A model generated the notes under the pieces. That model saw only the letters and a program-made list of their open reading frames with translations. It was not told the DNA's origin and did no database searches. From positions 23,059-87,058 of the forward strand of contig JAUVXU010000003.1 in the NCBI GenBank assembly GCA_030603445.1: a stretch of 64,000 bases of DNA, in the 5' to 3' direction. This document shows positions 1 to 17,562 of the stretch, in pieces. This DNA comes from Methanomicrobia archaeon. Its GTDB lineage: Archaea; Methanobacteriota_B; Thermococci; Methanofastidiosales; NM3. The first letter of the stretch is position 1, and each line of letters begins with the position of its first letter. The translations under genes and the position numbers were made by a program.

Positions 1-273
1 AAGGCCGATGCATTCAATTATATTGACCAAAAACATGACGGGGGGGCCGTCGTACATATGTAATTCGGGAAAAAATATGTGAAGAGAGGCAGTGATGATA
101 ATCACGATGCTTTTTAGCAAAAAAGCGGATGCAAAGAATATAAGGCCCATTGTGAACTTAGATTTTACATTCTTGTAGAGTCCCCGGAAAACGTAGAGCA
201 ATCCAAGTAATAGACAGAGGTTTATAACTTCCACCCCGAGCATTATGTATATCATCCATTCTGCTATAATCAT
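1..273 (-). CDS. hypothetical membrane protein (3' end runs off the window)
   Basis: Read by hand on the minus strand: ATG at 273-271, open to position 1 (MIIAEWMIYIMLGVEVINLCLLLGLLYVFRGLYKN...), hydrophobic. It lies 46 nt downstream of the ArsR-like ORF. It is absent from the ORF track because there is no stop inside the window. Confidence 0.45.
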   Translation of the reverse strand, partial: MIIAEWMIYIMLGVEVINLCLLLGLLYVFRGLYKNVKSKFTMGLIFFASAFLLKSIVIIITASLHIFFPELHMYDGPPVMFLVNIIECIGL

Positions 274-319
274 GTTCTTCCCTCTTTCACCAATTATTAT
301 AAATCATATCGTTCAGCTA

Positions 320-634
320 TTATTTTTTGCTGATTTGATCCCATATCTCCTTGAAAATATCGTAATTTTTTTCCGTACTAATCGAAAGGAAATACATTGT
401 GCCGTAGCTTTTCCCTCCAGACAATGAAATTATATTGTTATCTTCCAGGACTTTAAGATGATGTCTTACAGTCGTATAGTCCAATCCAAGTTTTTTAGTA
501 AGTTGATTTGCATTATAGGGCCTATCGTGAAGCATCTTGATTATTCTGGCACGATTCAAACCACCTTTCATTCCGCCAATTAAAAACCATAGGAGCCTTT
601 GCATATGTATATCTAACCCATTCGATCCAGACAT
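320..634 (-). CDS. ArsR/SmtB-type winged-helix transcriptional regulator
   Basis: 104 aa; HTH core NANQLTKKLGLDYTTVRHHLKVLEDNNIIS. Confidence 0.7.
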   Translation of the reverse strand: MSGSNGLDIHMQRLLWFLIGGMKGGLNRARIIKMLHDRPYNANQLTKKLGLDYTTVRHHLKVLEDNNIISLSGGKSYGTMYFLSISTEKNYDIFKEIWDQISKK

Positions 635-774
635 TCTATCATTCTCTATGGTTTTTATTCTTAGCTTTCTGTTGTGTTTGATATCTTAATCTATGATTTT
701 ATATACTTTGTTCATATTCCCTCTTTATTCTACAAGTCATGCACATCAATTACATGCCCTTTGTTGGTGATTTC

Positions 775-836
775 ACATAACGTCAGGAATATATGAAGTT
801 TTGTATAATGAAACAAAGCAAAATTTCGAGTTGTGA
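775..836. repeat. attC-like imperfect inverted repeat (short form)
   Basis: ACATAAC 775-781 ... GAAGTTTT/AAAATTTC stem ... GTTGTGA 830-836. Lies between the methyltransferase and ArsR cassettes. Confidence 0.6.
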
Positions 837-872
837 TTCCACCATATAAAAAAGATAGTTTCCGTCGGTAAC

Positions 873-1427
873 CTAATTTTCTAAAATAATCGCTCTGCTA
901 AAAAGCACCTTTTCTTTTTTAGATCGTTTTAATCCCGCTTCCTTTGCAATATTTATTGTATCTTCAAAAGCATTTTTAGAAACATGGAACATAGGTTCTA
1001 TAATAAACATTTTTCCATTTGTTTTTAACATAGACTTTATTTCTTTAAAAAAATTCATTTGATTAGGGACTTCATGAATCATATAAAAAGCTAGAACAAA
1101 ATCAACTTTTTCTGAGATTCCAATTTTGTTCTTTTCGCATTGATGTAATTTGATTCTTTTTTCAATTTCTGTTCCTATAATTTTATTTTCTACTTTTTTG
1201 AGCATGCCTTCTTGTAGATCTGCTGCAATGACTTTGCCTGTTTTACCAACCATTTTTGCCATTTCGATTGAAAAAAGTCCTGGACCACATCCGACATCTA
1301 ATGCGATCATTCCTTCTTTAACATAATCTTTTAGAAGTTTTTTAGGGTTATGAACCCATTTTCTAAAAATATTATCAAGATTTCCTGCATTTTCAACTGG
1401 GCATATTCTTTCATTTTTTTCTTTCAT
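873..1427 (-). CDS. class I SAM-dependent methyltransferase
   Basis: 184 aa; motif I ALDVGCGPGLFS. Confidence 0.85.
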   Translation of the reverse strand: MKEKNERICPVENAGNLDNIFRKWVHNPKKLLKDYVKEGMIALDVGCGPGLFSIEMAKMVGKTGKVIAADLQEGMLKKVENKIIGTEIEKRIKLHQCEKNKIGISEKVDFVLAFYMIHEVPNQMNFFKEIKSMLKTNGKMFIIEPMFHVSKNAFEDTINIAKEAGLKRSKKEKVLFSRAIILEN

Positions 1428-1446
1428 ATTTTATCATCTCTTTTCA

Positions 1447-1803
1447 TTATGATAATTTAAAAGATTCTTTAATATAAAATTCTACTTTTTTGTTTTTAAT
1501 GTCTTCAAACAGGAAAATTTTTATGTGTCTTCTCTGTTTTCCTGTTCCTTCTAAAATATTATCAGGATCAGGTATCATCGCCCCCAAGCTAAACTCAACG
1601 GAAATATGATTTTTTCTGATAAATATTCCACAAATTAATTTTGTATCAATTATAAAAACTAAACCGCCATATTTTATTTCTTCTTTTGCATCAGGTTTTA
1701 TTTCTAAAACCATTTTTCTTAAAGAGATTAGTATCTCTCCTTTTTCTTCATCAATAAAAAGTGTGTCTTGAATAAAGTTATCAATTTTAGGATTTGCTTT
1801 CAT
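1447..1803 (-). CDS. DUF1801 (YdhG-like) domain protein
   Basis: 118 aa. Size and EEIKYGGLVF / ISVEFSLG pattern resemble DUF1801 (assigned from memory). It lies 19 nt upstream of the methyltransferase with no repeat between them. Confidence 0.55.
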   Translation of the reverse strand: MKANPKIDNFIQDTLFIDEEKGEILISLRKMVLEIKPDAKEEIKYGGLVFIIDTKLICGIFIRKNHISVEFSLGAMIPDPDNILEGTGKQRRHIKIFLFEDIKNKKVEFYIKESFKLS

Positions 1804-1863
1804 AGTTATAATAATTCATCTTAGCTATTTAAATATTCATTTTTAGGTGAGGGACAAAATTTT

Positions 1864-1919
1864 GCCTAACGTTTCGCGGATATGAGAAGTTGCAAACGAA
1901 GTAAGCAATTTGGGTGATC
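1864..1919. repeat. attC-like imperfect inverted repeat (short form)
   Basis: GCCTAAC 1864-1870 ... GAGAAGTT ... CGAAG ... GCAATTTGG GTGATCT 1913-1919. It may extend to GTTTCAT 1927-1933, abutting the stop of the upstream ORF. Confidence 0.5.
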
Positions 1920-1932
1920 TCTGGGCGTTTCA

Positions 1933-2280
1933 TTAGCTCATCAATTTATATGATTCTTTAAGAAAGGCAACAAATTTTGTGTCAATGTCATCGGGTGTTT
2001 TTAATCTGAAATAATTGTGATATCTATTCTTTGACACTTGTTCGCATCTAATAATTCTCTCATCCTCGATAGGATGATCTAAAACCATATTGAAATCCAA
2101 CCAATTCTTTTTTGGATGAACTCCGCCAAAATCAGATTTACTTGTTAGATGAATACAAGTCTTCTTCGGGTTAATTTCTACTTGACCAATGTTTTTCTCA
2201 ATAGTTTCTACAATTTTCAAGTAAGTTTGATATACAATTGGATTTCTTTCTGAAAATAATTTTTCTGTTAATGAGTTCAT
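1933..2280 (-). CDS. small hypothetical protein (DUF5655-like)
   Basis: 115 aa ORF with codon usage consistent with its neighbours. The family call is weak. Confidence 0.5.
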   Translation of the reverse strand: MNSLTEKLFSERNPIVYQTYLKIVETIEKNIGQVEINPKKTCIHLTSKSDFGGVHPKKNWLDFNMVLDHPIEDERIIRCEQVSKNRYHNYFRLKTPDDIDTKFVAFLKESYKLMS

Positions 2281-2311
2281 TTTACCAATTTCTATTCCTA
2301 TAACATCTTTT

Positions 2312-2890
2312 TCATTTTCTCAGTTTCAAACAATAGTTCTTTCGCTTTACAATTTCATCCAATATTGAATGAAAAATCTTAGATTTATCTTTAATTTCTA
2401 ACCCGATAGAATCTTTCTTCGCTTTAGTTAATGCCTCTTTCAATTCTTCAACTTCAAAAATAGTAACGGCTATACAATAGTAGTTTTTCGAGCGCCCTTC
2501 ATTAAAATCTTGCAACATCTCCTTGAGTAATTTTTCTCTGATTTTCTGCACCTTTTCAAACTCACTAGCTCCATGCTTCCAGATAAAAGAAATATTATCT
2601 TCAAGTTTTTGATAACATTTGAATGTATCATGCAGTTTCCCAAATTCCCTATGCTTTTTCCATTTCTCACAAATTTGATTTTCCTCACAATCCGAGCAAA
2701 ACTCAATTCCTTTTTTCTTTACTGCACAAGTGATAAAAGGACAGCCGGCACCCATTCTAAATTCACTCTTGCACCCTTCGCATTTGCTTTTAGCCTCTGT
2801 ATGGTATCTAGGACAGAGTCTGCAAGAGAGCCCACAAATTCCGATTTCAGGGTATTTAATTTGCATGATTATTTCTTTTGACATATACAT
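2312..2890 (-). CDS. DUF3795 Cys-rich protein
   Basis: 192 aa; CGLSCRLCP ... CEGCKS ... GCPFITCA ... FCSDCEE cysteine pattern. Confidence 0.65.
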   Translation of the reverse strand: MYMSKEIIMQIKYPEIGICGLSCRLCPRYHTEAKSKCEGCKSEFRMGAGCPFITCAVKKKGIEFCSDCEENQICEKWKKHREFGKLHDTFKCYQKLEDNISFIWKHGASEFEKVQKIREKLLKEMLQDFNEGRSKNYYCIAVTIFEVEELKEALTKAKKDSIGLEIKDKSKIFHSILDEIVKRKNYCLKLRK

Positions 2891-2935
2891 TATATCCAGT
2901 AATATTTGTCACTTCAAAGAAGGAGTTCAGATTTT

Positions 2936-3015
2936 ATATAATGTTTGGCAGATAAAAGAAGTTACCAAAGGCAATTTGGGCGAAGCAAAGCGGAGTCGTG
3001 CAGTCGCTGTTAGGC
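2936..3015. repeat. attC-like imperfect inverted repeat (long form, 5' core degenerate)
   Basis: ATATAAT 2936-2942 ... AGAAGTTACC ... GGCAATTTGGGCGAAGC ... GTTAGGC 3009-3015. Confidence 0.5.
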
Positions 3016-3099
3016 GGCGTAATTAGGTTAGAGTCTCTAAAATATCCATTAAATTTATCAAATCCTCTGTTATATGATGACACGTATAATTCCTTTATT

Positions 3100-4083
3100 C
3101 TATTTTATATGGTATAACAGTTCCATTGCTTTTTTCTCTTTTTCTGATAAATCAACTAAAATTTCAGACGCTTGATTTATAAATTCAATATCTTTTGTTT
3201 TACCTGCTTTGTCAAATAGAGTTGAGACTTTTGCCCATTGATTCGCAATATCGGAAAACATTTTGTATGCTTGATTTAATTGTTCTATTTGCAACAAATC
3301 ATAACTTTCTTTTAAAAAGTCCCTGTAAAGATTTCGGAAAAGAGCTCCACCTGTTCCGGCTTTTTCCATTAACATTGCTGTTGTTGTAAAATCTCTTTCA
3401 ATGTCTTTACTGCTTTTGAACCATTTTTTTATTTCAACACTTGTTTTTAATATGCCTTTGTATCCTATGTTCTTTATTGGTGGGTTTAGATAATCTTTTG
3501 CATTATTCTTTATTGCTGTAATAATAGATTTTTTTAGGTTGTAGCTTTTTTCTGTTTTCTGAATAGTATAAAATAGATTTCTTGAAGACATTGGGCCTTT
3601 TTCATTTCGAGCTAATTCAAGGTTTTTTAAAGATGTTTTTACTTTTCCACCTTGTTGTTGAGTATCAATCAAATATGCAAATTCATTATCATATCCATAC
3701 ATTGCAACATAATGGCCTGCAAAATGAAATTTATTTGTAAAATATTCTAAATGATAGCAATCTAATTTTAAACCAACTGCAACTCCTTGATCAATATTGT
3801 TTTTCACGCTTTCCCATGCTTTTTTTATTGAAGATGTTTCTTTTACTATTAATTTTAAATTCAAATTATTCGTAATATTCTGAGTAAGAACATCTGGTTT
3901 TATTCTTCCGCCAATAAATGGGAAATCCATTATTTTCATATTCCAAAAAATAAAACCTAAACCTTCCCCTAATCCAAAAAGCATTGGTTCAGAAAGTTTA
4001 ATTCCAAGTTGATTCAATAAACTTCCAGTTGCTGTAGTTTCACAATGTTGTCCATTAAACTGCCTGAAATTTTTAATTGTCAT
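3100..4083 (-). CDS. BtrH-N/DUF4872-like (papain-like peptidase fold) protein
   Basis: 327 aa; N-terminus FNGQHCETTATGSLLNQLG resembles the BtrH N-terminal domain (from memory). Confidence 0.55.
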   Translation of the reverse strand: MTIKNFRQFNGQHCETTATGSLLNQLGIKLSEPMLFGLGEGLGFIFWNMKIMDFPFIGGRIKPDVLTQNITNNLNLKLIVKETSSIKKAWESVKNNIDQGVAVGLKLDCYHLEYFTNKFHFAGHYVAMYGYDNEFAYLIDTQQQGGKVKTSLKNLELARNEKGPMSSRNLFYTIQKTEKSYNLKKSIITAIKNNAKDYLNPPIKNIGYKGILKTSVEIKKWFKSSKDIERDFTTTAMLMEKAGTGGALFRNLYRDFLKESYDLLQIEQLNQAYKMFSDIANQWAKVSTLFDKAGKTKDIEFINQASEILVDLSEKEKKAMELLYHIK

Positions 4084-4114
4084 GATGTTTTCCTCTTTTT
4101 TTATGCGTGCTTTA

Positions 4115-4194
4115 ATATAACGTTTTAATAGTACAAGAAGTTGTCGAAGGCAATTTGGGGAAATATTTAGCTTCCCTCTTATCCGCTGTTGTGT
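4115..4194. repeat. attC-like imperfect inverted repeat (long form)
   Basis: ATATAAC 4115-4121 ... AGAAGTTGTCGAAGGCAATTTGGGG ... AGCTTCCCTCTT ... GTTGTGT 4188-4194. The arms pair with bulges. Confidence 0.6.
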
Positions 4195-4292
4195 GAGTGC
4201 AGCAGCACCGAAGCGTAACTAAGTGAGCTCAGAAATCAATTGTTCAGATGAGTGAATGCGATACATTAATAATACAAATTAAAGGGCAAATC

Positions 4293-5141
4293 TTACATAT
4301 CCTCCATTACAGGTTTATCTTCAATAAAATTAGAAGGCAATCCAATTTTCTTAAAATAATCAACCATTGACATGCATGCGAATTTTTCAGTAGAATAATG
4401 AGTTCCACCCAAAACATTTATTCTATGTTTTTCAGCAAATTCATGTGCTTTTTTTGAATGATCGTTTTTTGCAGTAATTCCTGTAACTAAAACATTTACC
4501 TTGTTTTGTGCTATTTCTTCGATGGTCTCATCTAAGCCACCGCCTGCGACAACTGCAACAGTTCCATTTGATATTTCACTATCCCCATAATTATACAAAC
4601 TAACCTTGTGGCCGACCATTTCTTGAAATTTTCTTCTTAAATCTTGAACTGTTGCTAAATCAGTTTTTCCAAACACTCCGCACAAGGAGCCAAAGTAGAG
4701 GGCAAAAGGTTTTTCCGGTTTAATATCTAATGCTTTTGCTAAAGTGACGCTTGTTGAATATTTCCCATAATTATCCAGAGGTACATGAAGATTGTAAATA
4801 GATATTCTTCTATCTTTGAATTGTTGCAATAATTTTCTATCCATCTGCTGAAAAACTTCTGGGGCTTTTCTAATATCCCATATCGAGGGATGATGAACAA
4901 AAAGCATCGCATCTTGAGTCCCGTCATCTAAAATTCTTTGCATAACCTCTCTTGATGGAAAAACAGCAGTATATACTTTATTAATTTCTGTTGCAAAATC
5001 ACAAACTAAACCCATTGATCTTTTCTTAAAGTTCTCACTAAGAAAATCAGCAACAGAGTCCATATACTCTGCCCATTCATCACTCATTTCTGGAGTGATA
5101 AAATCTTTTTCAAGTCGTTGATATAGTTGTGTTGCTTTCAT
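4293..5141 (-). CDS. Nif3-like dinuclear metal-centre protein
   Basis: 282 aa; LFVHHPSIWD and LGGTHYSTE motifs of the NIF3 family. Confidence 0.75.
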   Translation of the reverse strand: MKATQLYQRLEKDFITPEMSDEWAEYMDSVADFLSENFKKRSMGLVCDFATEINKVYTAVFPSREVMQRILDDGTQDAMLFVHHPSIWDIRKAPEVFQQMDRKLLQQFKDRRISIYNLHVPLDNYGKYSTSVTLAKALDIKPEKPFALYFGSLCGVFGKTDLATVQDLRRKFQEMVGHKVSLYNYGDSEISNGTVAVVAGGGLDETIEEIAQNKVNVLVTGITAKNDHSKKAHEFAEKHRINVLGGTHYSTEKFACMSMVDYFKKIGLPSNFIEDKPVMEDM

Positions 5142-5200
5142 AATAAAATTAAATAAACTTAATATTTTATAAGATTTGCTTCATTTGAAGAAAATAAGGC

Positions 5201-5602
5201 TTATTTGTGGGGTGCACAACGTATTAACCATAAACCGGTTAACAGGGCCATCAAGCTACCAAAACCATAGTAACCACAGATCCAATCAGCAACCATTGCC
5301 ACACCGCTGACAAGAGCCACATATTGTGCAATTTTAATCTCTGTAATGCCTTTAGCATATCGCAGTCGCCAGCCCCAGACGACATTCAATCCAGCTGAAA
5401 TAAGCACTATTAATCCACAAACTAGTCCTACGACTGGCGAAACCGAGTGCCAAGAAGATACTGGTGCCAACTTTCCACCTGGTGAAAAGAAAAGTGTCAG
5501 GTCCTGTGCTCCTCCATAAAGCATCAATATCCCGCCCAGAAGGAACACAACCAACCATGCCCAATGATGAAATCCTTGTTTTTTATATATATTTTCCATC
5601 AT
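5201..5602 (-). CDS. hypothetical membrane protein (about 4 TM)
   Basis: 133 aa, hydrophobic segments throughout. Confidence 0.55.
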   Translation of the reverse strand: MMENIYKKQGFHHWAWLVVFLLGGILMLYGGAQDLTLFFSPGGKLAPVSSWHSVSPVVGLVCGLIVLISAGLNVVWGWRLRYAKGITEIKIAQYVALVSGVAMVADWICGYYGFGSLMALLTGLWLIRCAPHK

Positions 5603-5630
5603 GATTAACTGTCCTTTGTCCTTTAAAAAT

Positions 5631-6077
5631 TTATAACTTCTTTTTCATTTCAATGGTGTCCCCAAAATCTTCTGAATGAAGCATTTTTATTTTCTTATAT
5701 CCCCTGTGTTTGTAAAATTCAAAAGAAGTCAAGCTAGAAGATAATTTGGCTGTTTTGTATCCGTTCTTTTTTGCTAAATCTTCAACTCTGTCCATTAGCT
5801 TTGAGCCAATGCCTTTGCCATGAATATTTGGATTAACAAAAACGGTCGATATATTATCATCTTTTAAACTAGCAGTTCCGAGAATTTTTTCATTCTCCGC
5901 GGCAACAAAAACATTTCTTTCTTTTGAATACTGAATTAGTTTAGCAGGGGTGAAATGCTTATGCATAAATTCTATTACACTTTTTGGATAATCTTTACTA
6001 TTGACCTCAGAAAGGCACTTTCTAGTTAAGTTAGAAACTTTTCTTGCATCTTCTTTTTTGAAGTTCCTAATACGCAT
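5631..6077 (-). CDS. GNAT family N-acetyltransferase
   Basis: 148 aa; VFVNPNIHGKGIGSKLMDRVEDLAKKNGY acetyl-CoA binding motif. Confidence 0.85.
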   Translation of the reverse strand: MRIRNFKKEDARKVSNLTRKCLSEVNSKDYPKSVIEFMHKHFTPAKLIQYSKERNVFVAAENEKILGTASLKDDNISTVFVNPNIHGKGIGSKLMDRVEDLAKKNGYKTAKLSSSLTSFEFYKHRGYKKIKMLHSEDFGDTIEMKKKL

Positions 6078-6133
6078 AGTATTAATAAGAATTTAAGATG
6101 CTATAAATTTTCTGTTCTCAGACGCAAAAGTGA

Positions 6134-6196
6134 ATACAATATTTTGAATATACGAAGTTTAGCAGAAAATTCCGAAAAGTAAAATTTGAGCTCCAA
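6134..6196. repeat. attC-like repeat, both core heptamers degenerate
   Basis: ATACAAT 6134-6140, 13 nt spacer, GAAGTTT 6154-6160 ... AAAATTTGA GCTCCAA 6190-6196. It has the same geometry as 775-836, but with AAC>AAT and GTT>GCT. Confidence 0.5.
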
Positions 6197-6333
6197 TCCA
6201 TATTTCCTTATTGCCCGGATACGCAACATAGAATATTTTAAAAAGAATCAAGTAAATACATTTACCATACATATTGAAAAAATTGGCAGAGAAATGTTGC
6301 AGATACTTTGTCAAAATTAAGGGATGAATAAAA

Positions 6334-7758
6334 ATGTTGGAAAAACATCAACTACTAATTAAAACACTTAATGAAAAACAAAAAGCCTATTTAAATTTAA
6401 ATTTGCCGAATCCAAGAAATGGAGAATATCTTCTTACAGTTTTTCATCTTATCCCTGGAGAAAAATTAAATATCTTGCAAGCAGCAGCAGAAGTTGCGGC
6501 CGAATCTTCTACTGGAACAAATTTTAAGGTAGATACGGAAACGCCCTTTTCTAGAGAAATGAACGCTCTTGTTTACCAACTTGATTTAAAAAGAGAATTA
6601 GTGTGGATAGCTTACCCCTGGAGACTTTTTGATAGGGGAGGAAATATTCAAAATATCTTTACATATATAGTGGGAAATGTTTTGGGAATGAAACAAGTCA
6701 ATGCCCTAAAATTATTAGATGTGTGGTTCCCTCCTGCAATGCTTGAACAATATGATGGTCCGAGTTATACGATTGATGATATGAGAAAATATTTAGATGT
6801 ATATGACAGACCTATTCTTGGAACCATTGTAAAGCCAAAAATGGGGCTTACATCTTCTGAGTATGCAGAAGTGGCTTATGATTTTTGGGCAGGAGGCGGA
6901 GATTTTGTCAAAAATGATGAGCCGCAGGCAAACCAGGATTTTTGTCCATATGACAAGATGGTAAAATATGTAAAAGAAGCAATGGATAAAGCAGTTAAAG
7001 ATACTGGAAAGAAAAAGGTCCATTCTTTCAATGTTTCTGCAGCTGATTTTGACACGATGGTTGAAAGATGTGAAATGATTATAAATGCTGGTTTTGAACC
7101 TGGAAGTTACGCATTTTTAATTGATGGAATTACTGCCGGGTGGATGGCAGTTCAAACTTTAAGAAGAAAATATCCAGATGTATTTATTCATTTTCATAGG
7201 GCGGCCCATGGGGCGTTTACAAGAGTAGAAAATCCATTGGGTTTTTCAGTTTTAGTTCTATCTAAATTTGCAAGGTTGGCAGGAGCATCAGGGATCCATA
7301 CTGGAACGGCTGGCGTTGGAAAGATGTCTGGAAACCCGGAAGAAGATGTTGTAGCTGCACATAACATTCAATACTTTACAGCAAAAGGGCATTTCTTTGA
7401 ACAGAGCTGGGGAAAGATTCCTGAAAAAGATGAAGATGCGATAAAACTTGTTCATGAAGATCTTACACATCTTCTTATTTTAGAAGATGATAGCTGGAGA
7501 GGAATGAAAAAATGCTGCCCCATTATCTCGGGAGGGTTAAATCCAGTTTTGTTAAAACCATTTATTGACATAATGAACAATACTAATTTTATAACTACAA
7601 TGGGGGCGGGGGTTCATGCTCATCCGGGAGGAACAAAAGCAGGAGCTAAGGCATTGGTTCAGGCGTGCGAAGCTTATAAAAAAGGAATAGATATTGAAAA
7701 ATATTCCAAGAAACACAGCGAGTTGGCAGATGCCATAAAATTCTTCTCAAAAAAATAA
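6334..7758 (+). CDS. rbcL: ribulose-1,5-bisphosphate carboxylase/oxygenase, form II/III large subunit
   Basis: 474 aa. Catalytic motifs present: VKPKMG, GGDFVKNDEPQ, HFHRAAHGA, GIHTGTAGVGKM, ISGGLN. A 29-aa insertion (KIPEKDEDAIKLVHEDLTHLLILEDDSWR) precedes GMKKCCPIISGG, as in Methanococcoides-type II/III enzymes. Confidence 0.95.
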   Translation: MLEKHQLLIKTLNEKQKAYLNLNLPNPRNGEYLLTVFHLIPGEKLNILQAAAEVAAESSTGTNFKVDTETPFSREMNALVYQLDLKRELVWIAYPWRLFDRGGNIQNIFTYIVGNVLGMKQVNALKLLDVWFPPAMLEQYDGPSYTIDDMRKYLDVYDRPILGTIVKPKMGLTSSEYAEVAYDFWAGGGDFVKNDEPQANQDFCPYDKMVKYVKEAMDKAVKDTGKKKVHSFNVSAADFDTMVERCEMIINAGFEPGSYAFLIDGITAGWMAVQTLRRKYPDVFIHFHRAAHGAFTRVENPLGFSVLVLSKFARLAGASGIHTGTAGVGKMSGNPEEDVVAAHNIQYFTAKGHFFEQSWGKIPEKDEDAIKLVHEDLTHLLILEDDSWRGMKKCCPIISGGLNPVLLKPFIDIMNNTNFITTMGAGVHAHPGGTKAGAKALVQACEAYKKGIDIEKYSKKHSELADAIKFFSKK

Positions 7759-7759
7759 A

Positions 7760-7878
7760 TTAAAGTAGAAATTGATGAGGATAGTGAAAGAAGTTAATGA
7801 GCTATAATCTTTGTTGAAAATCTTTTCAATTCCAAAAAGAGCACTCAAAAGATAGAAAACTAAAAATTTGAGTTAATC
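7760..7878. repeat. attC-like repeat (long spacer, 5' boundary uncertain)
   Basis: AGAAGTT 7789-7795 ... AAAAATTTGA GTTAATC 7872-7878. Lies between the rbcL stop and the GNAT stop. Confidence 0.45.
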
Positions 7879-7886
7879 ATAATTCT

Positions 7887-8363
7887 CTATAATAATATTC
7901 TCATTTTAACAAATTGGTGTTTGTCCCCATTTGTTTCCTGCATATACTCTTCAACTATCTCAAATCCTATCTTTTTGTATGTTTTTATTGCACGTTCATT
8001 AAACTTTGCTACTACTAACATTATATAATGCCCATCATATCCATAATGCTTTATACCAAATTTTATACCAGACATTGCAAAATCGGACCCATACCCTTTT
8101 CCTGTATATTTGGGGTTAAGCCCAAAACCAACCCACATGACATTATAGATAAAAGAAAAAGAATAAAAACCAATCAATTCTTTGGATTGATTTAAGACCG
8201 CAAATATATACTTCCATTGTTTTAAATCCAAGAAATCATTTAAATCTTCTTCATCAGCAGTCATATCATAAAAAGAATAAATACCTTCATATTTCCACTG
8301 ATAAGCAATTTCATTGGCATATTTTTCATTCATTGGGACATAATTATATTTCATAGAGATCAT
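7887..8363 (-). CDS. GNAT family N-acetyltransferase
   Basis: 158 aa; LNPKYTGKGYGSDF and NERAIKTYKKIGFE motifs. Confidence 0.8.
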   Translation of the reverse strand: MISMKYNYVPMNEKYANEIAYQWKYEGIYSFYDMTADEEDLNDFLDLKQWKYIFAVLNQSKELIGFYSFSFIYNVMWVGFGLNPKYTGKGYGSDFAMSGIKFGIKHYGYDGHYIMLVVAKFNERAIKTYKKIGFEIVEEYMQETNGDKHQFVKMRILL

Positions 8364-8380
8364 TTTTAGAGATGTATTTT

Positions 8381-8452
8381 AGATAACTATTTTAAACGGA
8401 TCTTCTGTTCGCTTAACATTCTTCTTAGGATTTAAAGCGAGATTTGATTAAA
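8381..8452. repeat. attC-like repeat, second sequence family, 3' half decayed
   Basis: AGATAAC 8381-8387 ... TTCGCTTAA/TTTAAAGCGA hairpin. Homologous to 12799-12877. Confidence 0.45.
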
Positions 8453-8602
8453 TCCAAATAAAAATATTTTGGAAATAAATAAATCTTTCCCCAAACCATT
8501 TTAAAAAAGTTAAATATATTTGATAATACTAATGCTGTAAAAACCTCATTTTTATAACAATGTTCTTTTTAGATTTTGTATAAAATTATCTTTTTTTGCA
8601 CC

Positions 8603-8694
8603 CTTAAGATTGTGATAAAAAAGAGAAGTTTTCACGAATTGAAGATTTGAGTGAGACACGAGCCGAGTGTCAAACCTTTTATCCATTGTTAGAC
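8603..8694. repeat. attC-like imperfect inverted repeat (long form)
   Basis: ATAAAAAAGAGAAGTTTTCAC pairs with GTGTCAAACCTTTTAT. Ends with GTTAGAC 8688-8694, a perfect GTTRRRY. Confidence 0.55.
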
Positions 8695-8709
8695 GACGAG
8701 CCAAAAACA

Positions 8710-9123
8710 TTATACAATTACTTCTTTTCCACATCTACTACATTTGTAATGATAAAAAATGACGATTCCTCCACAGGAAGGGCATGACCATCTTCGCTTC
8801 TGATACTCAAGATAGTTTACCATCCCTATTTGTTTCATCTTTTCAAAAATCTCCGGAATCTCATGTCTGTACCTAAATTTCGGGTCTCCAAGATGAGTAT
8901 CAAGAAGTTTCTTCCTATATTTTTCACATGGAAAATTACTACAATCAATGCAGAAATCTTTCTCTTCAATATTATAGCAACAATCCCTTATTTTGCATCC
9001 CCATTTGCTTGTTCTTTTTTGTTCTTTACTTTCTGAGGCACATCCAAGACAAGTCTTATTAAAGGAAGGACATGCTCCACAAAAAACTCCACAAGGAGCC
9101 AATTCATTTGGTATTTGTTTCAT
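8710..9123 (-). CDS. DUF3795 Cys-rich protein
   Basis: 137 aa; CGVFCGACP ... CLGCAS ... CKIRDCC ... FCIDCSNFPC pattern. Confidence 0.65.
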   Translation of the reverse strand: MKQIPNELAPCGVFCGACPSFNKTCLGCASESKEQKRTSKWGCKIRDCCYNIEEKDFCIDCSNFPCEKYRKKLLDTHLGDPKFRYRHEIPEIFEKMKQIGMVNYLEYQKRRWSCPSCGGIVIFYHYKCSRCGKEVIV

Positions 9124-9180
9124 ATTATTTCCTTCATTTGTTAGATATTTAGCATGCCATCTAACGTTTTGTGGATATTC

Positions 9181-9265
9181 TTAACGTCCTAAATTTCTTC
9201 ATCGTTCTGCCTTTAAAAACTCTAAAAACTCCTGGGTATGCTTGTTGATAAGAGGCATCCTTTAG
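9181..9265 (-). repeat. ~80 bp copy of the junction between the 378-aa and 133-aa genes at 16404-16489 (gene-fragment relic)
   Basis: Hand alignment of 9185-9262 to 16408-16486 gives 4-5 mismatches in ~78 nt. In this copy the 133-aa gene start survives only as MKKFRTLRISTKR-stop. Confidence 0.8.
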
Positions 9266-9321
9266 TAAATTAATTATTAGTTCTTTTTATATTTTATTTC
9301 AGGCGTTCCAAAGCCGATTGC

Positions 9322-9394
9322 GTATAACACTAAGATTTAAAGAAGTTTACGAAACGAAGTGGAGCCGGCTATTCGCTGATACATGTGGTTGTGT
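9322..9394. repeat. attC-like imperfect inverted repeat (long form)
   Basis: GTATAAC 9322-9328 ... AGAAGTTTACGAAACGAAG ... central AGCCGGCT palindrome ... GTTGTGT 9388-9394. Confidence 0.6.
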
Positions 9395-9402
9395 CAAATA
9401 TT

Positions 9403-10173
9403 TCAGGACACTTTATCAGCTCTTGTAACAATAAAAGCATTCGTGAATTCATCTAGTAATTCTTCGCCTTTATCCTCATAAAATCCGGAAATGCTAAAAC
9501 CAGCCTCTATCTGGCCATTGATTTGGTCTGTAAGGCTATGCCCGAATTCGAATGGCGCCATATTTTCAGTATACTCTTTCTTTTTAGCATCTGATAAAGA
9601 TTTTAAATCAGAATATGGGATAGCAGTTTCTATTACACATTTTCTTGTCTTCTCAGCTTTTTCCCAGTTTATCATATACATAATAGGATTATTAAATCCA
9701 GATAATAATCTGCCATTCTTTTTTAGGACCCTGTAAGCTTCCCTCCAAACAGGCAAAATATCATCAATAAAACAATTTGAAACTGGATGAATTATCAGAT
9801 CAAAAGTATCATCTGAAAATATTGACAGATCTTGCATATTTCCTTTTACAGTTTTTATATTTAAATTGTATTTAACTGCAATTTTTTTATCTTGTTCAAG
9901 CTGTTTGTCGGAATTATCAAATACAGTTACATTTGCACCTGCAGCAGCCAAGATAGGACCTTGCTGTCCTCCCCCCGAAGCTAAGCACAAAACATTCTTA
10001 TTAACTATATTTCCAATCCACTCTTCTGGAACGGTCTTAAAAGGCGTTAGGACAATTTTTATTATGCCTTTTTTAGCTTCCTGTATCTGTTCTTCTGAAA
10101 TTGGGATGGTCCATTGATTTCCTTTTTTAACTTCATTGTTCCATGCAATTCTATTATGTTCTAATAAATTCAT
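9403..10173 (-). CDS. class I SAM-dependent methyltransferase
   Basis: 256 aa; VLCLASGGGQQGPILAAAGANVTVFDNS. Confidence 0.8.
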   Translation of the reverse strand: MNLLEHNRIAWNNEVKKGNQWTIPISEEQIQEAKKGIIKIVLTPFKTVPEEWIGNIVNKNVLCLASGGGQQGPILAAAGANVTVFDNSDKQLEQDKKIAVKYNLNIKTVKGNMQDLSIFSDDTFDLIIHPVSNCFIDDILPVWREAYRVLKKNGRLLSGFNNPIMYMINWEKAEKTRKCVIETAIPYSDLKSLSDAKKKEYTENMAPFEFGHSLTDQINGQIEAGFSISGFYEDKGEELLDEFTNAFIVTRADKVS

Positions 10174-10202
10174 TTCTTATACTTCCTTTTTGGTATAATT
10201 AC

Positions 10203-10290
10203 ATATAACGCATGTCATTAAAAGAAGTTACGTAAGAAATTTGAATGGAGAAACCTGCAAGATTTCGTAGTCTTTTATCTGTCGTTATAT
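10203..10290. repeat. attC-like imperfect inverted repeat (long form, best preserved)
   Basis: ATATAAC 10203-10209 and GTTATAT 10284-10290 are exact inverse complements. The arms TTAAAAGAAGTTACGTAAGAAATTTG / CAAGATTTCGTAGTCTTTTAT pair with bulges. Confidence 0.7.
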
Positions 10291-10450
10291 TCCCAAAAAA
10301 AGAAATTTCAGAGTAAATCTGGAACCCGTTTATTTGAATTTAAAGGAATTGTCGTATTCAATTCTATCTATTTTGGAATTTTGCAACCAGTTCTTTTTGT
10401 TTTTTGTTCGATTGTAAGATTTTTTGGATTTTAGACATATTTTTACCTAT

Positions 10451-11041
10451 TCAAATATGAATTATAAATTTACAGCTTTTTGCTCCAGTGATTACTGATT
10501 GCACAAGTTCTACTTCAACTGGTTTTTCGAGCGCTACTTCAAAAAACTGCTTTTCCCATTCAGCACCACACTGACAATATGTGTCTGTAGAAAAAGGTTC
10601 TTTAGTTTGTTTAACCTGTCCGCAAAAGCATTTATCATACTCCACGATAACTGTATTCTTGTTTTTTAATTTGAAGCTAACGCCTTTATAATTTTCATTT
10701 AATTTATCAAGAAATTCATTAATAGACTTTGATTCACTCATCAATTTCTTCACAGTCTTTCTATGTCCCTGCCCGCAGCATTTTTGACCGCAGGCCTTCA
10801 TTATCTGGACTACTTTTTCCTTGTCCAATTCTTTTTCTAACTGTTCAATAGCTTCTTTCCACCACTCAGCTTGTTTGACGGGGTTAAATGAATTGTATTT
10901 GTCCGAACCCCGCATGATTTTCTCCAAAATCTCTTGATCAACTTCTGCCATAAGGATTTTTGCAAATCGTCCTATTCTGCCCGTTACTGGGATCTTTGCG
11001 CCGGATTTATTTTTTGTAATCATGGTGTTTTCTCCATTCAT
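10451..11041 (-). CDS. Cys-rich hypothetical protein (DUF6144-like)
   Basis: 196 aa; CGQKCCGQGH ... CFCGQV ... YCQCGAEW ... SCKF. Confidence 0.5.
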   Translation of the reverse strand: MNGENTMITKNKSGAKIPVTGRIGRFAKILMAEVDQEILEKIMRGSDKYNSFNPVKQAEWWKEAIEQLEKELDKEKVVQIMKACGQKCCGQGHRKTVKKLMSESKSINEFLDKLNENYKGVSFKLKNKNTVIVEYDKCFCGQVKQTKEPFSTDTYCQCGAEWEKQFFEVALEKPVEVELVQSVITGAKSCKFIIHI

Positions 11042-11060
11042 AATGTTAAATTAGCGTAAT

Positions 11061-11798
11061 TTAATATTGAATGACTTTTGGAACATCTTTAGAAACATTG
11101 ACACATAACTGAATATCTTTCACGGTAAATTTCCCTTTTGTATACTTCCTTTTATTATTAATTTCTGCAAGTTTCTTAAAAAGATTCTCTGCCTTTGATT
11201 TTGATATTTTTTCCGCTGTATCTGTTCCAGATTCTAAGAAAATTCTAGCAAATATTGGTCCAATCCATTTTATTCTTGATATATCTGTTAATTTTACAAG
11301 TTCCATTAGTTCTTCGCTTGAAATATTTGCTTGTTTGGCTAATTCAGATCTTTCCTTTTTTGTTTTAATTTTTCCAAATAAATGCTTCGTGTTTTTAAGG
11401 CCAAATTTTCCCAGTTTATCTATTACCTCATTTTTTATACCAGGAAATTTATTTAAGTTTACAGGTTTTGGCTGATAACTATTAACTTCCCTTATTAGAA
11501 TTGTAAGATAATCCTCCGGCAAACCTGATTTTTTAGCAAATTCTTTTACATTTTTTGGTGTTTTCAAAACATTGACTATATCCTGAAGATTTTTAATCCC
11601 CTGTTTTTTTAGGCATTTGATTCTTTCTCCTATTTGCTCTTTTAAAATCATTCTACTCGGAATCATTTCTGATTGTTCAAGCACTTTCTGGTATTTTTCA
11701 ATACTAAAATTTTCTAAATTGATATGATAGTTATCAGTCGTTTTGCTTGCATCCTTAACACTGATGTTTGGTGTAAGACTTTTCGTTGTTGCCCCCAT
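11061..11798 (-). CDS. DUF4332-like helix-hairpin-helix repeat protein
   Basis: 245 aa. Repeated K-rich HhH-like segments; the family call is from memory. Confidence 0.5.
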   Translation of the reverse strand: MGATTKSLTPNISVKDASKTTDNYHINLENFSIEKYQKVLEQSEMIPSRMILKEQIGERIKCLKKQGIKNLQDIVNVLKTPKNVKEFAKKSGLPEDYLTILIREVNSYQPKPVNLNKFPGIKNEVIDKLGKFGLKNTKHLFGKIKTKKERSELAKQANISSEELMELVKLTDISRIKWIGPIFARIFLESGTDTAEKISKSKAENLFKKLAEINNKRKYTKGKFTVKDIQLCVNVSKDVPKVIQY

Positions 11799-11857
11799 AA
11801 TTACTATATTAAAAATTAAAATTTATAAATATAATCATTTTTTGGAATTAAGTAGGA

Positions 11858-11884
11858 AAAAATACAATATTATCCCCCTCTTTT
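11858..11884. repeat. 27-nt exact repeat (cassette leader), copy 1
   Basis: AAAAATACAATATTATCCCCCTCTTTT, identical to 12957-12983. The homology continues towards the adjacent attC-like site. Confidence 0.85.
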
Positions 11885-11932
11885 TAGAAAGCCTATCTAA
11901 TGTATAAGAACGAAAAATATTTTTTGAATTAT

Positions 11933-11993
11933 ATATAACATTTGGGATATACGAAGTTTTGCGGAATGAAACGAAGCAAAATTTGGGTGAGGA
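11933..11993. repeat. attC-like imperfect inverted repeat (short form)
   Basis: ATATAAC 11933-11939, 13 nt spacer, GAAGTTTTGCGGAATGAAACGAAGCAAAATTTGG GTGAGGA 11987-11993. Same geometry as 775-836. Confidence 0.55.
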
Positions 11994-12101
11994 GCGATAA
12001 TGACGAAAGCGCAGCGTTCCTTTGAGTTCCGAACCCCACCCGTTTCAATCAATCATTATTCAGAAATTTTCTTTGATAAAATCACTGATCCATCTTCTTG
12101 A

Positions 12102-12719
12102 TTATTTTTTAGCCTCATTTTTCCATCGGGGTAGTTCTGGCATCATTTCATCAATCATTTTTTCTGCATCCTCTCTTGTTTTACCCATAAATTTCATTGC
12201 CGCGTTTATGCTCCCCTCTCTTACCTGTTCCTTGCTTGCCAATTCACCTGTTTGTTGATTCTGACAATGGATGCAATATCGGTTGTCGATTTTAGATGTT
12301 GTGCTTTCATCAATCGAAAGCGGCATTCCGCAACTTTCACACTGAACCATTCTTGCATCTTCATCACATTCCCAAAGCCCAAAGGTATTATTTTCAGTGT
12401 CAATGCAAATCGCAGCATATCCTATACTTGGGACAGCTGTTTTTGGCATCACTATTTTGCCACCGAGTTTTTCAACTTTGGCAATATATACATCAATTGA
12501 GGGAACATCAATATAATTGACAATTGCATCTGACGGGTTTTCTCTTTTTCCAAGCCCGCCGCCAAGACCTTTTTTACCGTCTTCATCTACTGTTTCAATT
12601 CCGTAGTATTCCACAGGGCCTGGCATTTTTTCAATTTTCCATCCAAATAGTTCAGTATAGAACTTCTTTGCTCGCTCTATATCATCTGCTGGCACCATAA
12701 AATGAGTTATTGCTGGCAT
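12102..12719 (-). CDS. VOC (glyoxalase/bleomycin-resistance fold) protein with C-terminal zinc ribbon
   Basis: 205 aa; HFMVPADDIERAKKFYTELFGWK followed by CESCG ... CIHCQ. Confidence 0.75.
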   Translation of the reverse strand: MPAITHFMVPADDIERAKKFYTELFGWKIEKMPGPVEYYGIETVDEDGKKGLGGGLGKRENPSDAIVNYIDVPSIDVYIAKVEKLGGKIVMPKTAVPSIGYAAICIDTENNTFGLWECDEDARMVQCESCGMPLSIDESTTSKIDNRYCIHCQNQQTGELASKEQVREGSINAAMKFMGKTREDAEKMIDEMMPELPRWKNEAKK

Positions 12720-12798
12720 TTTTATCCACCTCCTTATCTTATTTAAATTAAATTTGAATATATATAAAATTTTTTCTAAAAGCGGGGTTTGGAATTTT

Positions 12799-12877
12799 AT
12801 ATAACTAATATTAAACGAACCTTTTGTTCGCTTAATACCTTGTCTCAGAGTTAAAGCGAAGTTTTATAAAGTTGGAT
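12799..12877. repeat. attC-like imperfect inverted repeat (second sequence family)
   Basis: ATATAACTAATATTAAAC pairs with GTTTTATAAAGTTGGAT. Inner hairpin TTCGCTTAA/TTAAAGCGAA. R' is GTTGGAT at 12871-12877. Confidence 0.65.
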
Positions 12878-12956
12878 TGAAGCAGATTTGAAATTAAAAT
12901 TTCTCTATAAAAAGGCATGGACGCTAAGCATAGATTTCATCTAATAATTTATTGTC

Positions 12957-12983
12957 AAAAATACAATATTATCCCCCTCTTTT
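12957..12983. repeat. 27-nt exact repeat (cassette leader), copy 2, in an ORF-less unit
   Basis: Identical to 11858-11884. Confidence 0.85.
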
Positions 12984-13040
12984 GTTTTAGAAAAAATCAA
13001 TTTATTCCTTTTCATCTTAGAAAAATATTTTTTAGATTGA

Positions 13041-13134
13041 GCATAATATCGAGATTTAGAGAAGTTTTCGACGAAGTTAAAAATTTGAATGGAAGAAACT
13101 GAAATTTTCTGGAACCCCTAAATCTTTGTTATGT
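13041..13134. repeat. attC-like imperfect inverted repeat (long form)
   Basis: GCATAAT 13041-13047 ... GAGATTTAGAGAAGTTTTCGACGAAGTTAAAAATTTGA pairs with TGAAATTTTCTGGAACCCCTAAATCTT ... GTTATGT 13128-13134. Confidence 0.65.
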
Positions 13135-13257
13135 CTGTTTTGAAGAAACTAAGAGTTAGTGCAACGGTTGACGAAACCAAAACCCACGGAGTTTTTATAT
13201 TTAAGAATTATAATAAATTACGAACAAAGTGAGTGTAAAATTAAGAAAAAAAGCCCT

Positions 13258-13992
13258 CTAAAAAATTAATTTACTTTTTTGAGTATAAATCATGTAACTC
13301 TTCATTAAAGATATTACTATTAGAGTTGTTGATAATGAGGTAGTTTCCATAATTTTCCATCTTTGATTTTCTTTCTTATCAACACCGTGAGCTTTACCCA
13401 TTGACCTAATACTTGAAAGGCCCGCTGTTAAATTATTTAGCTTTGTTGGAAATTTATTATTTTGATTAAACAATTGAGCTATCTGTGCTATTCCCTGGCA
13501 CTTAGATAAGTTTAAACCACTATTAAGATCAATTCTTAAAAAATCCTCTAATGCTCTGCCTAAATCATTGATTGATTCTTCTGGATCAGATTTTGTATGG
13601 ATTATTGCAGTAATTAAATCTTTTAAGACATTTGGAGAAATTCGTTTATAATAATCTCCAAATTCTTCTTTTAAAAATTTTCCTGTTAAAACTTTATTCT
13701 GTACTGATTTTTCTAAACTTTCTAATGTTTTATTTTTATTTGTTTTGTCACTTATTCTTATTTTAAGTATCTTTATCCATCCATCCAAAATGTTTTCAAT
13801 AGTCGCATGATTTTGCTCAATATCATAAAATTTTTTTAGAAGTTTAATGGAATCTTGTTTTGATTTTTTCTTTGACAAGAAATATACATATTCAATTAGA
13901 ATTTTATCTTCAGCTAAAATTTTTTCGATTGTCCTTTTTGAACTTTCTTCTGTACCATCAATTTGATTGAAGATACCTTCTGAAAGAATCAA
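13258..13992 (-). CDS. hypothetical protein with possible C-terminal HEPN-like R-x5-H motif
   Basis: 244 aa starting at a TTG. Contains SIRSMGKAHG (R-x5-H). The frame stays open 54 codons further upstream (to 14151) and encodes a winged-helix-like segment with no ATG/GTG/TTG start. Confidence 0.4.
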   Translation of the reverse strand: MILSEGIFNQIDGTEESSKRTIEKILAEDKILIEYVYFLSKKKSKQDSIKLLKKFYDIEQNHATIENILDGWIKILKIRISDKTNKNKTLESLEKSVQNKVLTGKFLKEEFGDYYKRISPNVLKDLITAIIHTKSDPEESINDLGRALEDFLRIDLNSGLNLSKCQGIAQIAQLFNQNNKFPTKLNNLTAGLSSIRSMGKAHGVDKKENQRWKIMETTSLSTTLIVISLMKSYMIYTQKSKLIF

Positions 13993-17558: not shown

Positions 17559-17562
17559 TAGT

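Follow-up and report, generated by a model that had tools for sequence, protein, structure and literature searches.

How does the gene of a central carbon enzyme come to lie back to front in an array of small cassettes, and was it the machinery of such arrays that brought it there? The question is raised by a 64,000-nucleotide stretch of DNA from a Methanomicrobia archaeon (GTDB lineage Archaea; Methanobacteriota_B; Thermococci; Methanofastidiosales; NM3), corresponding to positions 23,059 to 87,058 of the forward strand of contig JAUVXU010000003.1 in the GenBank assembly GCA_030603445.1. This stretch, referred to below as the window, carries a gene for the large subunit of a form II/III RuBisCO, a carboxylase/oxygenase of ribulose-1,5-bisphosphate. 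Enzymes of this form are found in a patchy manner across the DPANN archaea, the Candidate Phyla Radiation of bacteria (CPR) and a few methanogen lineages, and neither the landing site nor the vehicle of their transfer has so far been pinned down. We consider it likely that the RuBisCO of the window is derived from a DPANN archaeon, that it was acquired with a short fragment of the donor's chromosome, and that it now lies inverted at a fixed site in a decaying array of attC sites, the recombination sites of integron cassettes, which is devoid of an integrase. That it entered as a canonical cassette is not proven.

The product of the gene, which is 474 amino acids long, contains both RuBisCO large-subunit domains (PF00016, E 1e-91; PF02788, E 4e-29 in Pfam) and is aligned by phmmer over residues 6-472 with the form II/III enzyme of Methanococcoides burtonii, the structure of which is 5MAC (E 4e-273). 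All of the catalytic motifs quoted in the preliminary description of this DNA were found, namely VKPKMG at residue 166, GGDFVKNDEPQ at 188, HFHRAAHGA at 286, GIHTGTAGVGKM at 320 and ISGGLN at 398, and there is no deviation inside any of them; compared with 5MAC they are identical or show conservative exchanges of non-catalytic residues (GNVLGM versus GNILGM; AGVGKM versus AGIGKM). The 29-residue insert (residues 361-389), which had been taken as a mark of the M. burtonii type, is indeed of that type, as it aligns without gaps with the matching segments of 5MAC and 8VGS. In its length, its insert and its complete set of motifs the protein resembles the M. burtonii enzyme, and the identity between the two is high. 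Among the 240 alignment columns that are at least 97% conserved in 80 other form II/III homologues, 238 are kept, and the two deviations (L109F and D418N) lie outside the catalytic motifs, so that what the gene encodes is a complete RuBisCO of form II/III and not a RuBisCO-like protein.

A 97% identical RuBisCO is encoded on four metagenome contigs from sister strains (L001 to L004). Of the codons that differ between the genes of the window and of L001, 43 are changed synonymously and 15 non-synonymously, and the nucleotide identity of the two genes, 95.6%, may be compared with 93.8-95.2% for three host genes. By these figures the catalytic protein is kept under purifying selection, which speaks only indirectly for a carboxylase activity. 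Its extreme C-terminus has fared differently in the window strain. The RuBisCOs of the sister strains and of the Nanoarchaeota homologues discussed below are 13-15 residues longer than that of the window and end in an acidic tail: the sister contigs translate through it to give 487 amino acids ending in KKSTEAEIAENSERS, and the Nanoarchaeota locus L006 ends in KKPKDVEVAEETEKS. In the window a change of TCA to TAA at 7756-7758 has removed this tail, and 7759-7797 can still be read in frame as IKVEIDEDSERS followed by the ancestral stop codon.

The relatives of the gene lie outside of its host lineage. In a neighbour-joining tree of 85 form II/III sequences the RuBisCOs of the window and of its sisters join two loci from Nanoarchaeota metagenome-assembled genomes (MAGs), L005 and L006, with a bootstrap of 98/100; they are placed with the Methanofastidiosum clade in 0/100 replicates, and the five sequences of that clade hold together in 100/100. 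At the protein level the identity is 88-89% to L005 and L006 and approximately 83% to Methanofastidiosum. The G+C content at third codon positions (GC3) is 0.26 versus 0.36-0.51 for host genes, and the L005 and L006 contigs have a G+C content of 0.30-0.31. The phylogeny and the codon composition, which the preliminary description had proposed as checks on a foreign origin, both came out on its side.

The resemblance to the Nanoarchaeota loci stretches past the open reading frame (ORF), upstream over 6181-6333, where the nucleotide identity is 80-81% to L005 218-333 and to L006 9616-9727, and downstream as far as 7795-7798. In L005 and L006 an intact gene for a 108-amino acid ArsR-type regulator (ArsR/HTH_5 in L006) overlaps the start of the RuBisCO gene, an arrangement present in three of 80 RuBisCO loci (L005, L006 and L059). 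The window and L001 retain the promoter region of the regulator together with about its first 17 codons; the start codon has been lost and the remainder deleted. Since the regulator is intact in L005 and L006 and a stump in the window, the change ran from a Nanoarchaeota-like source into the array. A conserved TATA-like element precedes the former start of the regulator by about 28 nt and that of RuBisCO by about 95 nt. In the two loci of the Methanofastidiosum clade that were examined (L039, L066) the RuBisCO gene is found beside ordinary metabolic genes, and none of the five RuBisCO loci of this clade contains an attC array; a match to our model of the repeat family described below, at L066 2455-2521 (E 0.014) near the RuBisCO gene, falls inside a coding region and was counted as chance. 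A RuBisCO foreign to the host lineage, from a DPANN-type donor, is supported by this comparison of sequences, and the donor type can be read from the shared regulator stump as well as from the phylogeny. The segment amounts to some 1.6 kb.

The surroundings of the gene are of an unusual kind. The first ~15 kb of the window have a G+C content of 0.27-0.36, versus 0.37-0.48 in the remainder, and a GC3 of 0.18-0.37 versus the range given above for host genes. They are made up of small minus-strand genes with attC-like sites, or remnants of these, in between. Pfam identifies among the products two GNATs, two methyltransferases, a glyoxalase/bleomycin-type protein, DUF1801, DUF5655 and two DUF3795 proteins, as well as ArsR, NIF3, a BtrH_N/DUF4872 protein, DUF6144 and DUF4332. 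GNATs, glyoxalases, methyltransferases and DUF proteins are the usual cargo of cassettes in surveys of integrons. RuBisCO is the only credible plus-strand gene of this block, as had been claimed; another plus-strand ORF of at least 100 amino acids (2573-2881) overlaps a Pfam-supported gene on the minus strand. Paralogous types of cargo recur in the array (DUF3795, GNATs and methyltransferases, two each), and its two DUF3795 genes (2312-2890 and 8710-9123) are distinct and cysteine-rich.

The repeat that separates these genes is confined to the spacers of the array and to one strand, as judged by a half-site profile and a family-specific covariance model (R2), and neither the remaining 49 kb of the window nor 80 further RuBisCO loci nor the viral contigs of IMG/VR yielded a copy. 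When metagenomes were scanned with the family pattern, 38 contigs were obtained, of which about 30 carry true members. The full-length copies on these ~30 contigs are imperfect palindromes of 82-90 nt with the top-strand sequence RYYYAAC-AGC-GGATAAAAG-(short variable hairpin)-CCCAAATTGCCTTCGGTAACTT-CTTTTATCCGC-AAAAC-GTTATAYG. When the structure was tested with 21 sequences, 88% of the cells were paired versus 35-55% in slid controls, compensatory changes on both sides occurred in nine pairs, a value reached by none of 500 shuffles, the inner (L) helix was 92.6% paired, and the AAC and GTT end positions were invariant or nearly so. A significantly complementary second arm is present in 12 of 23 metagenome copies and in 5 of 17 copies from the window and its sisters; most of the window copies have decayed to a single arm. 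A gene on the top strand ends just upstream of the site in 32 of the 34 sites that could be scored. Two pairs of sites are in the same orientation and closer than 4 kb, the definition of a cluster of attC sites lacking an integrase (CALIN; at least two attCs) as applied here with R2 and not with IntegronFinder: 2935-3016 with 4114-4195 (1.1 kb), and 10202-10291 with 13040-13135 (2.7 kb). On metagenome contig L108 a canonical attC lies on the same strand as four sites of the family; it was detected (E 0.0065) with a general attC model (R1) built from nine archaeal attCs (PMC9668308, Data S9) and attC-aadA7. On these grounds we take the block to be a cassette array of the integron type and of the CALIN class, with a family of sites that is distinctive and, in the window, largely decayed. 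The minus strand of the window is the top strand of the attC sites, and the RuBisCO gene is therefore truly inverted relative to the array, in agreement with the preliminary description. The opposite polarity, which the plus-strand bulges of the best-folded window site might suggest, was refuted by the full-length members, the family model and the order of genes and sites.

The family attCs of contig L108 (Ga0209991_10001305, 1-11249), at 3673-3754, 4996-5082, 6138-6224 and 10573-10653, follow genes for HEAT-repeat proteins, and the canonical attC lies at 8924-8982; repeated modules of a small XRE-HTH gene and a 65-amino acid ORF are present as well.

At the borders of the RuBisCO gene the two sides are unequal. 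On the low-coordinate side there is a repeat copy whose R' box is ATTGTAT instead of GTTATAT (in plus-strand terms a terminal box ATACAAT versus ATATAAC in the family). No complementary partner was detected for its arm (p=0.5; p=1.0 for the L001 orthologue), and the full site that can be drawn at 6133-6217 includes non-canonical pairs and scores 11.7 bits, which at an E of ~4 over the whole window is the level of noise. Donor-homologous DNA abuts the internal module of this copy from 6181 onward, and the place of the missing R''-L'' arm is therefore filled by imported DNA. Of the two core heptamers that had been described as mutated on this side, ATACAAT at 6134 is the mutated box of a real copy of the repeat, and the other, GCTCCAA (6190-6196), belongs to the Nanoarchaeota-homologous DNA. 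On the high-coordinate side the GAAGTT that lends the sequence the look of a repeat is formed by the last codons of the RuBisCO tail, and the 89-nt spacer that follows leads to a convergent GNAT gene. The best R2 score in 7740-7900 is 4.6 bits, without any match to the half-site profile, and the orthologous spacer of L001 has no R2 match of about 9.7 bits or more. The preliminary picture of a gene placed exactly between two attC-like sites is thereby lost, as there is one degenerate arm on the low side, and a coding remnant plus a spacer without a detectable attC on the high side. The same applies to the idea of a single cassette with two sites: RuBisCO lies in one inter-site interval together with the GNAT gene at 7887-8363, no site being detectable between the two, and the unit keeps a promoter region and a regulator stump, which gives it the look of a block of donor chromosome more than of a trimmed cassette. 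Neither a paired attC of its own nor a second R' boundary could be detected, and the unit is not a compact promoterless ORF on the top strand and is not found in several contexts; it is by all of these that cassettes are recognized. The features of the window are collected in the table. A motif AAATTTGRG was considered as a crossover core forming direct repeats around RuBisCO and was discarded, for the sister strains (AAATAGGAG) do not conserve the copy on the high side (7864-7872), and the copy on the low side is inside donor-homologous DNA.

Table. Features of the window, with the family covariance model denoted R2
Feature	Position	Strand	Description or evidence
Low-GC cassette array (CALIN), continuing past the window start	1-14998	-	GC, GC3, Pfam, census of sites, strain-level gain and loss
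attC-family site	2935-3016	-	R2 55.8 bits, E 1e-10
attC-family site	4114-4195	-	R2 59.3 bits, E 2e-11
GNAT acetyltransferase cassette gene, low side of RuBisCO	5631-6077	-	148 aa; Acetyltransf_10/7/1; same neighbour in L001-L004
Truncated degenerate attC, L'-R' arm and conserved internal module only	6130-6180	-	Half-site profile E 9e-4
Imported upstream region	6181-6333	+	TATA-like element ~6233-6245, ArsR-type stump 6267-6320, RuBisCO ribosome-binding region
Form II/III RuBisCO large-subunit gene, intact	6334-7758	+	474 aa; Pfam, alignment to 5MAC
Decayed remnant of 13-codon acidic C-terminal tail	7759-7797	+	Premature TAA 7756-7758; ancestral stop 7795-7797
Spacer between convergent RuBisCO and GNAT genes	7798-7886		89 nt; two small hairpins (fold), no detectable attC
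GNAT acetyltransferase cassette gene, high side of RuBisCO	7887-8363	-	158 aa; Acetyltransf_1/3; same neighbour in L001-L004
attC-family site, full R/L hairpin fold	10202-10291	-	Partner test p=0.038; R2 48.2 bits, site itself in the training set of the model
attC-family site	13040-13135	-	R2 27.4 bits, E 7e-4
Start of conserved host chromosome	14999-18297		309-aa orphan ORF (+), DUF1699/HTH_7, DUF530, GGGP synthase

The sister strains indicate that the gene has not moved of late. In all four contigs it occupies one syntenic position, and the GNAT-RuBisCO-GNAT trio adjoins or neighbours the same host genes (309-amino acid ORF, DUF1699, DUF530 and GGGP synthase). The DNA identity between the window and these contigs is 91-94%, in the array and the host parts alike, and 14999-18297 is collinear in all of them (blastn identity 93-94%). 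As the junction of array and host is common to five independent assemblies, a chimeric assembly is ruled out, and since RuBisCO has diverged to the same degree as the host genes it was in place before the populations of the window and its sisters split. Among 5.8 billion proteins the RuBisCO unit had no second genomic context; there were four clusters at 97%, all in the same position, and the next match was at 87%. The proposal that the cassette is now immobile is borne out by the degenerate flanking site and the single position in five assemblies. For the companion proposal that RuBisCO is being moved there is no evidence, as those proteins offer no second context; nor was an integrase found in the window or the sister contigs.

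The gene content of the array does differ between strains, in blocks of the size of cassettes. At its host-proximal end (8522-14998) the array has an extra 6.5 kb of cassettes in the window strain alone, and compared with its sisters this strain also has a BtrH-like unit (~2981-4159) and a DUF1801/DUF5655 pair. Some of the breakpoints are at mid-site or remove whole sites, so that not all coincide with the canonical G|TT, and they are therefore not usable as proof of integrase action. The region 8522-14998 is where the entry of new cassettes would be expected had an attI been there; its breakpoints are in A/T-rich runs with no recognizable site.

No tyrosine recombinase was found among the ORFs of the 64-kb window (Pfam, phmmer) or in the gene tables of L001 to L004, and the array is classed as a CALIN because there is no integrase within 64 kb. 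Nor does the window or any of these contigs contain the arrangement of a complete integron, in which a recombinase of the IntI type with its extra domain stands beside an attI. The ORF of 309 amino acids at 15094-16023 (plus strand) was examined as a hidden recombinase and rejected, as it has no match in Pfam or the PDB and no recombinase signature, and its single-sequence structural model has a pLDDT of 40. Its relatives among 1.84 billion representatives are distant and number just 12 (E <= 1e-10). Its location at the boundary of array and host, divergent from the cassettes, is the classical position of intI; two of the four sister contigs have the ORF in a split form. Elsewhere, on metagenome contig L099 (Ga0209410_1023014, 1-2691), a tyrosine recombinase gene precedes, by ~160 nt and on the same strand, a two-cassette array of this family. 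The protein is XerA-like (best NCBIfam match NF040815) and has no IntI-specific insertion. The intergenic region of L099 ends in a mini-palindrome, ATATAAC...GTTATAT, directly before the first cassette, and L108 has a degenerate fragment of a recombinase of the L099 type (9810-10043). It is possible that the L099 recombinase and the mini-palindrome are the integrase and the attI of the attC family.

The history that we favour, that of a DPANN-derived piece of chromosome in an old array, would be the following. A fragment of ~1.6 kb with the promoter, the ArsR-type regulator gene and rbcL would have entered the array from a Nanoarchaeota-like source, the array being its landing place. The imported segment (~6181-7797) now shares an inter-site interval with a GNAT gene and, on its low side, takes the place of the R''-L'' arm of an attC. 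The regulator was afterwards almost wholly deleted and, in the window strain, the acidic tail of 13 residues lost too; the catalytic protein has been kept by purifying selection, and inherited vertically since before the split of the window and sister strains. Transcription may well proceed from the retained donor-type TATA element ~95 nt upstream, and the enzyme would carboxylate ribulose-1,5-bisphosphate provided by salvage enzymes or a phosphoribulokinase encoded elsewhere. With regard to the mode of entry we prefer, though not strongly, an illegitimate insertion into the attC that follows the GNAT gene over a canonical capture as a reverse cassette. The former fits because the low-side junction is inside a site; the latter, with subsequent loss of sites, fits because the homology stops at the old stop codon and the high-side spacer has the size of an attC.

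A number of observations tell against this history or parts of it. The tree is distance-based and the protein very conserved, and the taxonomic label of L005 and L006 is one given by the binning of MAGs. With no integrase found, the action of such an enzyme on the array, past or present, is inferred. The partner genes of the pathway are not in the window. The best-formed copies of the family score just 4-6 bits with R1, and because this model does not score the window repeats their status as attCs rests on structure and context; R1 being small and trained mostly on G+C-rich sites, its failure is a weak negative. Lastly, the 89-nt spacer is about as long as a family attC and has near its ends TATAAT (7804-7809), which is TAAC-like, and GTTAATC (7872-7878), which is GTTA-like, and might possibly conceal an attC that has wholly decayed.

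This last point leads to the canonical alternative, in which RuBisCO would be a bona fide cassette in reverse orientation that entered by integrase-mediated recombination of attC with attI or attC, its own attC on the low side and the attC of the upstream cassette on the high side both having decayed and so immobilized it. We hold this to be unlikely. In its favour, the array is of the integron type and has a defined polarity, many further sites in it are likewise reduced to one arm, the spacer has the length and the boxes just mentioned, and the end of donor homology at the ancestral stop codon, 7795-7798, is what is seen in a tightly trimmed cassette end. It is opposed by the lack of any model or profile signal in the spacer or its sister-strain orthologue, by the nature of the claimed high-side site, which is in part a remnant of RuBisCO coding sequence, and by the low side, where neither the window nor the less-deleted L001 has room for an R''-L'' arm. 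A promoter and the stump of a neighbouring gene are, moreover, unusual for a cassette, and the unit was encountered in one context only among the 5.8 billion proteins. It might also be argued that the repeats are not recombination sites at all. If they were portable promoter or regulatory modules, the block would simply be a hypervariable genomic island formed through recombination, homologous as well as illegitimate, with RuBisCO as one of its genes. The best-conserved arm does end in GTTATAT(A), resembling a TATA box, 25-60 nt upstream of several cassette starts, the decayed copies of the window conserve only the arm beside the downstream gene, and several strain breakpoints are inside or outside the repeat and off the canonical G|TT; the silence of the canonical attC model and the lack of an integrase in the window would be accounted for as well. 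A promoter would have no need of palindromes, of compensatory changes in the inner helix or of AAC and GTT ends, and the distance from box to start ranges from 25 to more than 300 nt. The position of the sites after same-strand genes (32 of 34), the array shared with a canonical attC in L108 and the sites that follow a tyrosine recombinase in L099 also speak against it, and we regard this explanation as improbable.

That the gene is simply the vertical enzyme of the Methanofastidiosia, its likeness to that of the Nanoarchaeota being due to reverse transfer or mis-binning, we find hardly credible. Form II/III RuBisCO is present in Methanofastidiosum genomes, all five assemblies of the lineage have the gene in a syntenic position, and the binned labels of L005 and L006 leave some room for such a view. 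It was placed outside of the Methanofastidiosum RuBisCO clade, however, in 100/100 bootstraps, the RuBisCO genes of that clade are in unrelated, ordinary chromosomal contexts, the GC3 is in keeping with the G+C content of the L005 and L006 contigs and not with the host, and it is in L005 and L006 that the regulator is intact. A slim chance may be given to a further scheme, in which this attC family, with its conserved unpaired module of 22 nt and its TATA-like R' box, would define a distinct archaeal integron-like system. A XerA-type recombinase without the IntI domain, such as that of L099, would serve sites that double as promoters for the next cassette, and the system would take up metabolic genes of kilobase size, RuBisCO among them, from DPANN episymbionts into the chromosomes of their hosts. 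If it were true, such a system would be a real vehicle for the patchy distribution of the form II/III enzymes.

Cassettes in reverse orientation with promoters of their own, for example those of toxin-antitoxin systems, are known from the chromosomal integrons of bacteria, and these keep two functional boundaries. The RuBisCO gene is like them in opposing the polarity of its array and probably in having its own promoter; unlike them, with their own attC and the R' of the neighbour, it has one degenerate half-site. Among archaea, Ghaly et al. 2022 (PMC9668308, Data S1/S3) recorded CALINs for Methanofastidiosum GCA_001587715.1, with 16 attCs but without an IntI. The array of the window is similar to the archaeal CALINs (PMC9668308) in its tandem short genes on the same strand, each followed by an imperfectly palindromic AAC...GTT site, with no integrase nearby, in sites that are more similar within than between lineages, in a cargo with many acetyltransferases and functionally uncharacterized proteins, and in the class of its host. 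It differs from them in that its sites are A+T-rich, carry a conserved unpaired internal module of ~22 nt (CCCAAATTGCCTTCGGTAACTT) and are not scored by the model of published attCs, and in having one interval with a large reversed gene of central metabolism plus its own promoter region.

With respect to RuBisCO, Jaffe et al. 2019 (PMC6389311) describe lateral transfer among CPR, DPANN and methanogens and suggest phage as a possible route; word searches of that paper turned up no integrases or mobile elements. The present case agrees with the transfers set out there (PMC6389311) in a form II/III phylogeny that conflicts with that of the host, a DPANN-type donor and a euryarchaeal recipient, and differs from them in that the recipient locus, the extent of the segment (~1.6 kb, including promoter and regulator stump) and the structure at the landing place can be read directly in the window. 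Compared with the form II/III loci of DPANN and CPR, the window gene is set in a cassette array, its ArsR regulator is a stump, the acidic tail is cut and there are no salvage genes within 64 kb. A full-text search of the literature gave no published link between RuBisCO and integrons or cassettes. Archaeal CALINs, including those of this class (PMC9668308), and the lateral transfer of form II/III RuBisCO (PMC6389311) were thus already known; what is new is a delimited transfer of RuBisCO from DPANN to Methanofastidiosia inside a cassette array, and a family of attCs, widespread in metagenomes, that a model of ten published attCs does not score. Methyl-reducing methanogens, to which the recipient lineage is related, could plausibly be hosts to symbionts of the DPANN group.

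The preliminary description went further and saw in the integron cassette the vehicle for the patchy distribution of form II/III RuBisCO. We do not follow it here, since with a fixed gene, a lone degenerate half-site and no integrase this is not demonstrated; the case shows where a transferred RuBisCO can land, not that integron machinery moved it. It is a concrete example of how archaeal arrays of the integron type can hold large genes of central metabolism besides small accessory ones, and for long enough for selection to act. Should standard detectors also miss this family of attCs, archaeal cassette arrays may be under-counted.

AMP phosphorylase and ribose-1,5-bisphosphate isomerase are said to feed RuBisCO in the salvage of nucleosides, and an archaeal phosphoribulokinase has reportedly been characterized. 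As stated in the preliminary description, domains of these three enzymes are absent from the window (Pfam-scanned ORFs); genes for AMP phosphorylase or ribose-1,5-bisphosphate isomerase are not adjacent to RuBisCO in L006, L039 or L066 either.

From ~15.0 kb onward the window is an ordinary archaeal chromosome, with genes for GGGP synthase, GluRS, HisRS, RFC subunits, RtcB and FttA. The RtcB is 98% identical to a protein of a Candidatus Methanofastidiosia MAG, and the next matches, at ~70%, are named Methanofastidiosia or Methanofastidiosa. An intron-containing tRNA of 150 nt at 28045-28194 (plus strand; Rfam, 40.8 bits), which was missed by ARAGORN, fits an archaeal host.

Within the array, the interval 5179-5620 contains a predicted membrane ORF of 133 amino acids (5201-5602) with a host-like G+C content of 0.44, in place of a copy of the attC family in the sister strains (L001 9166-9272). 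Two variant repeats (8383-8455 and 12803-12900) have an extra hairpin of ~35 nt (TTAAACG..CTT.TGTTCGCTTAA), which separates the GAAGTT module from the terminal box. The interval 9153-9263 joins the truncated arm of an attC (CATCTAACGTTTTGTGGATATTC) to host DNA, in the form of an 83-nt copy that is 93% identical to 16404-16486; the copy consists of the last 21 codons of DUF530 and the first 7 of DUF1699, and the originals lie 7 kb away at the border of array and host.

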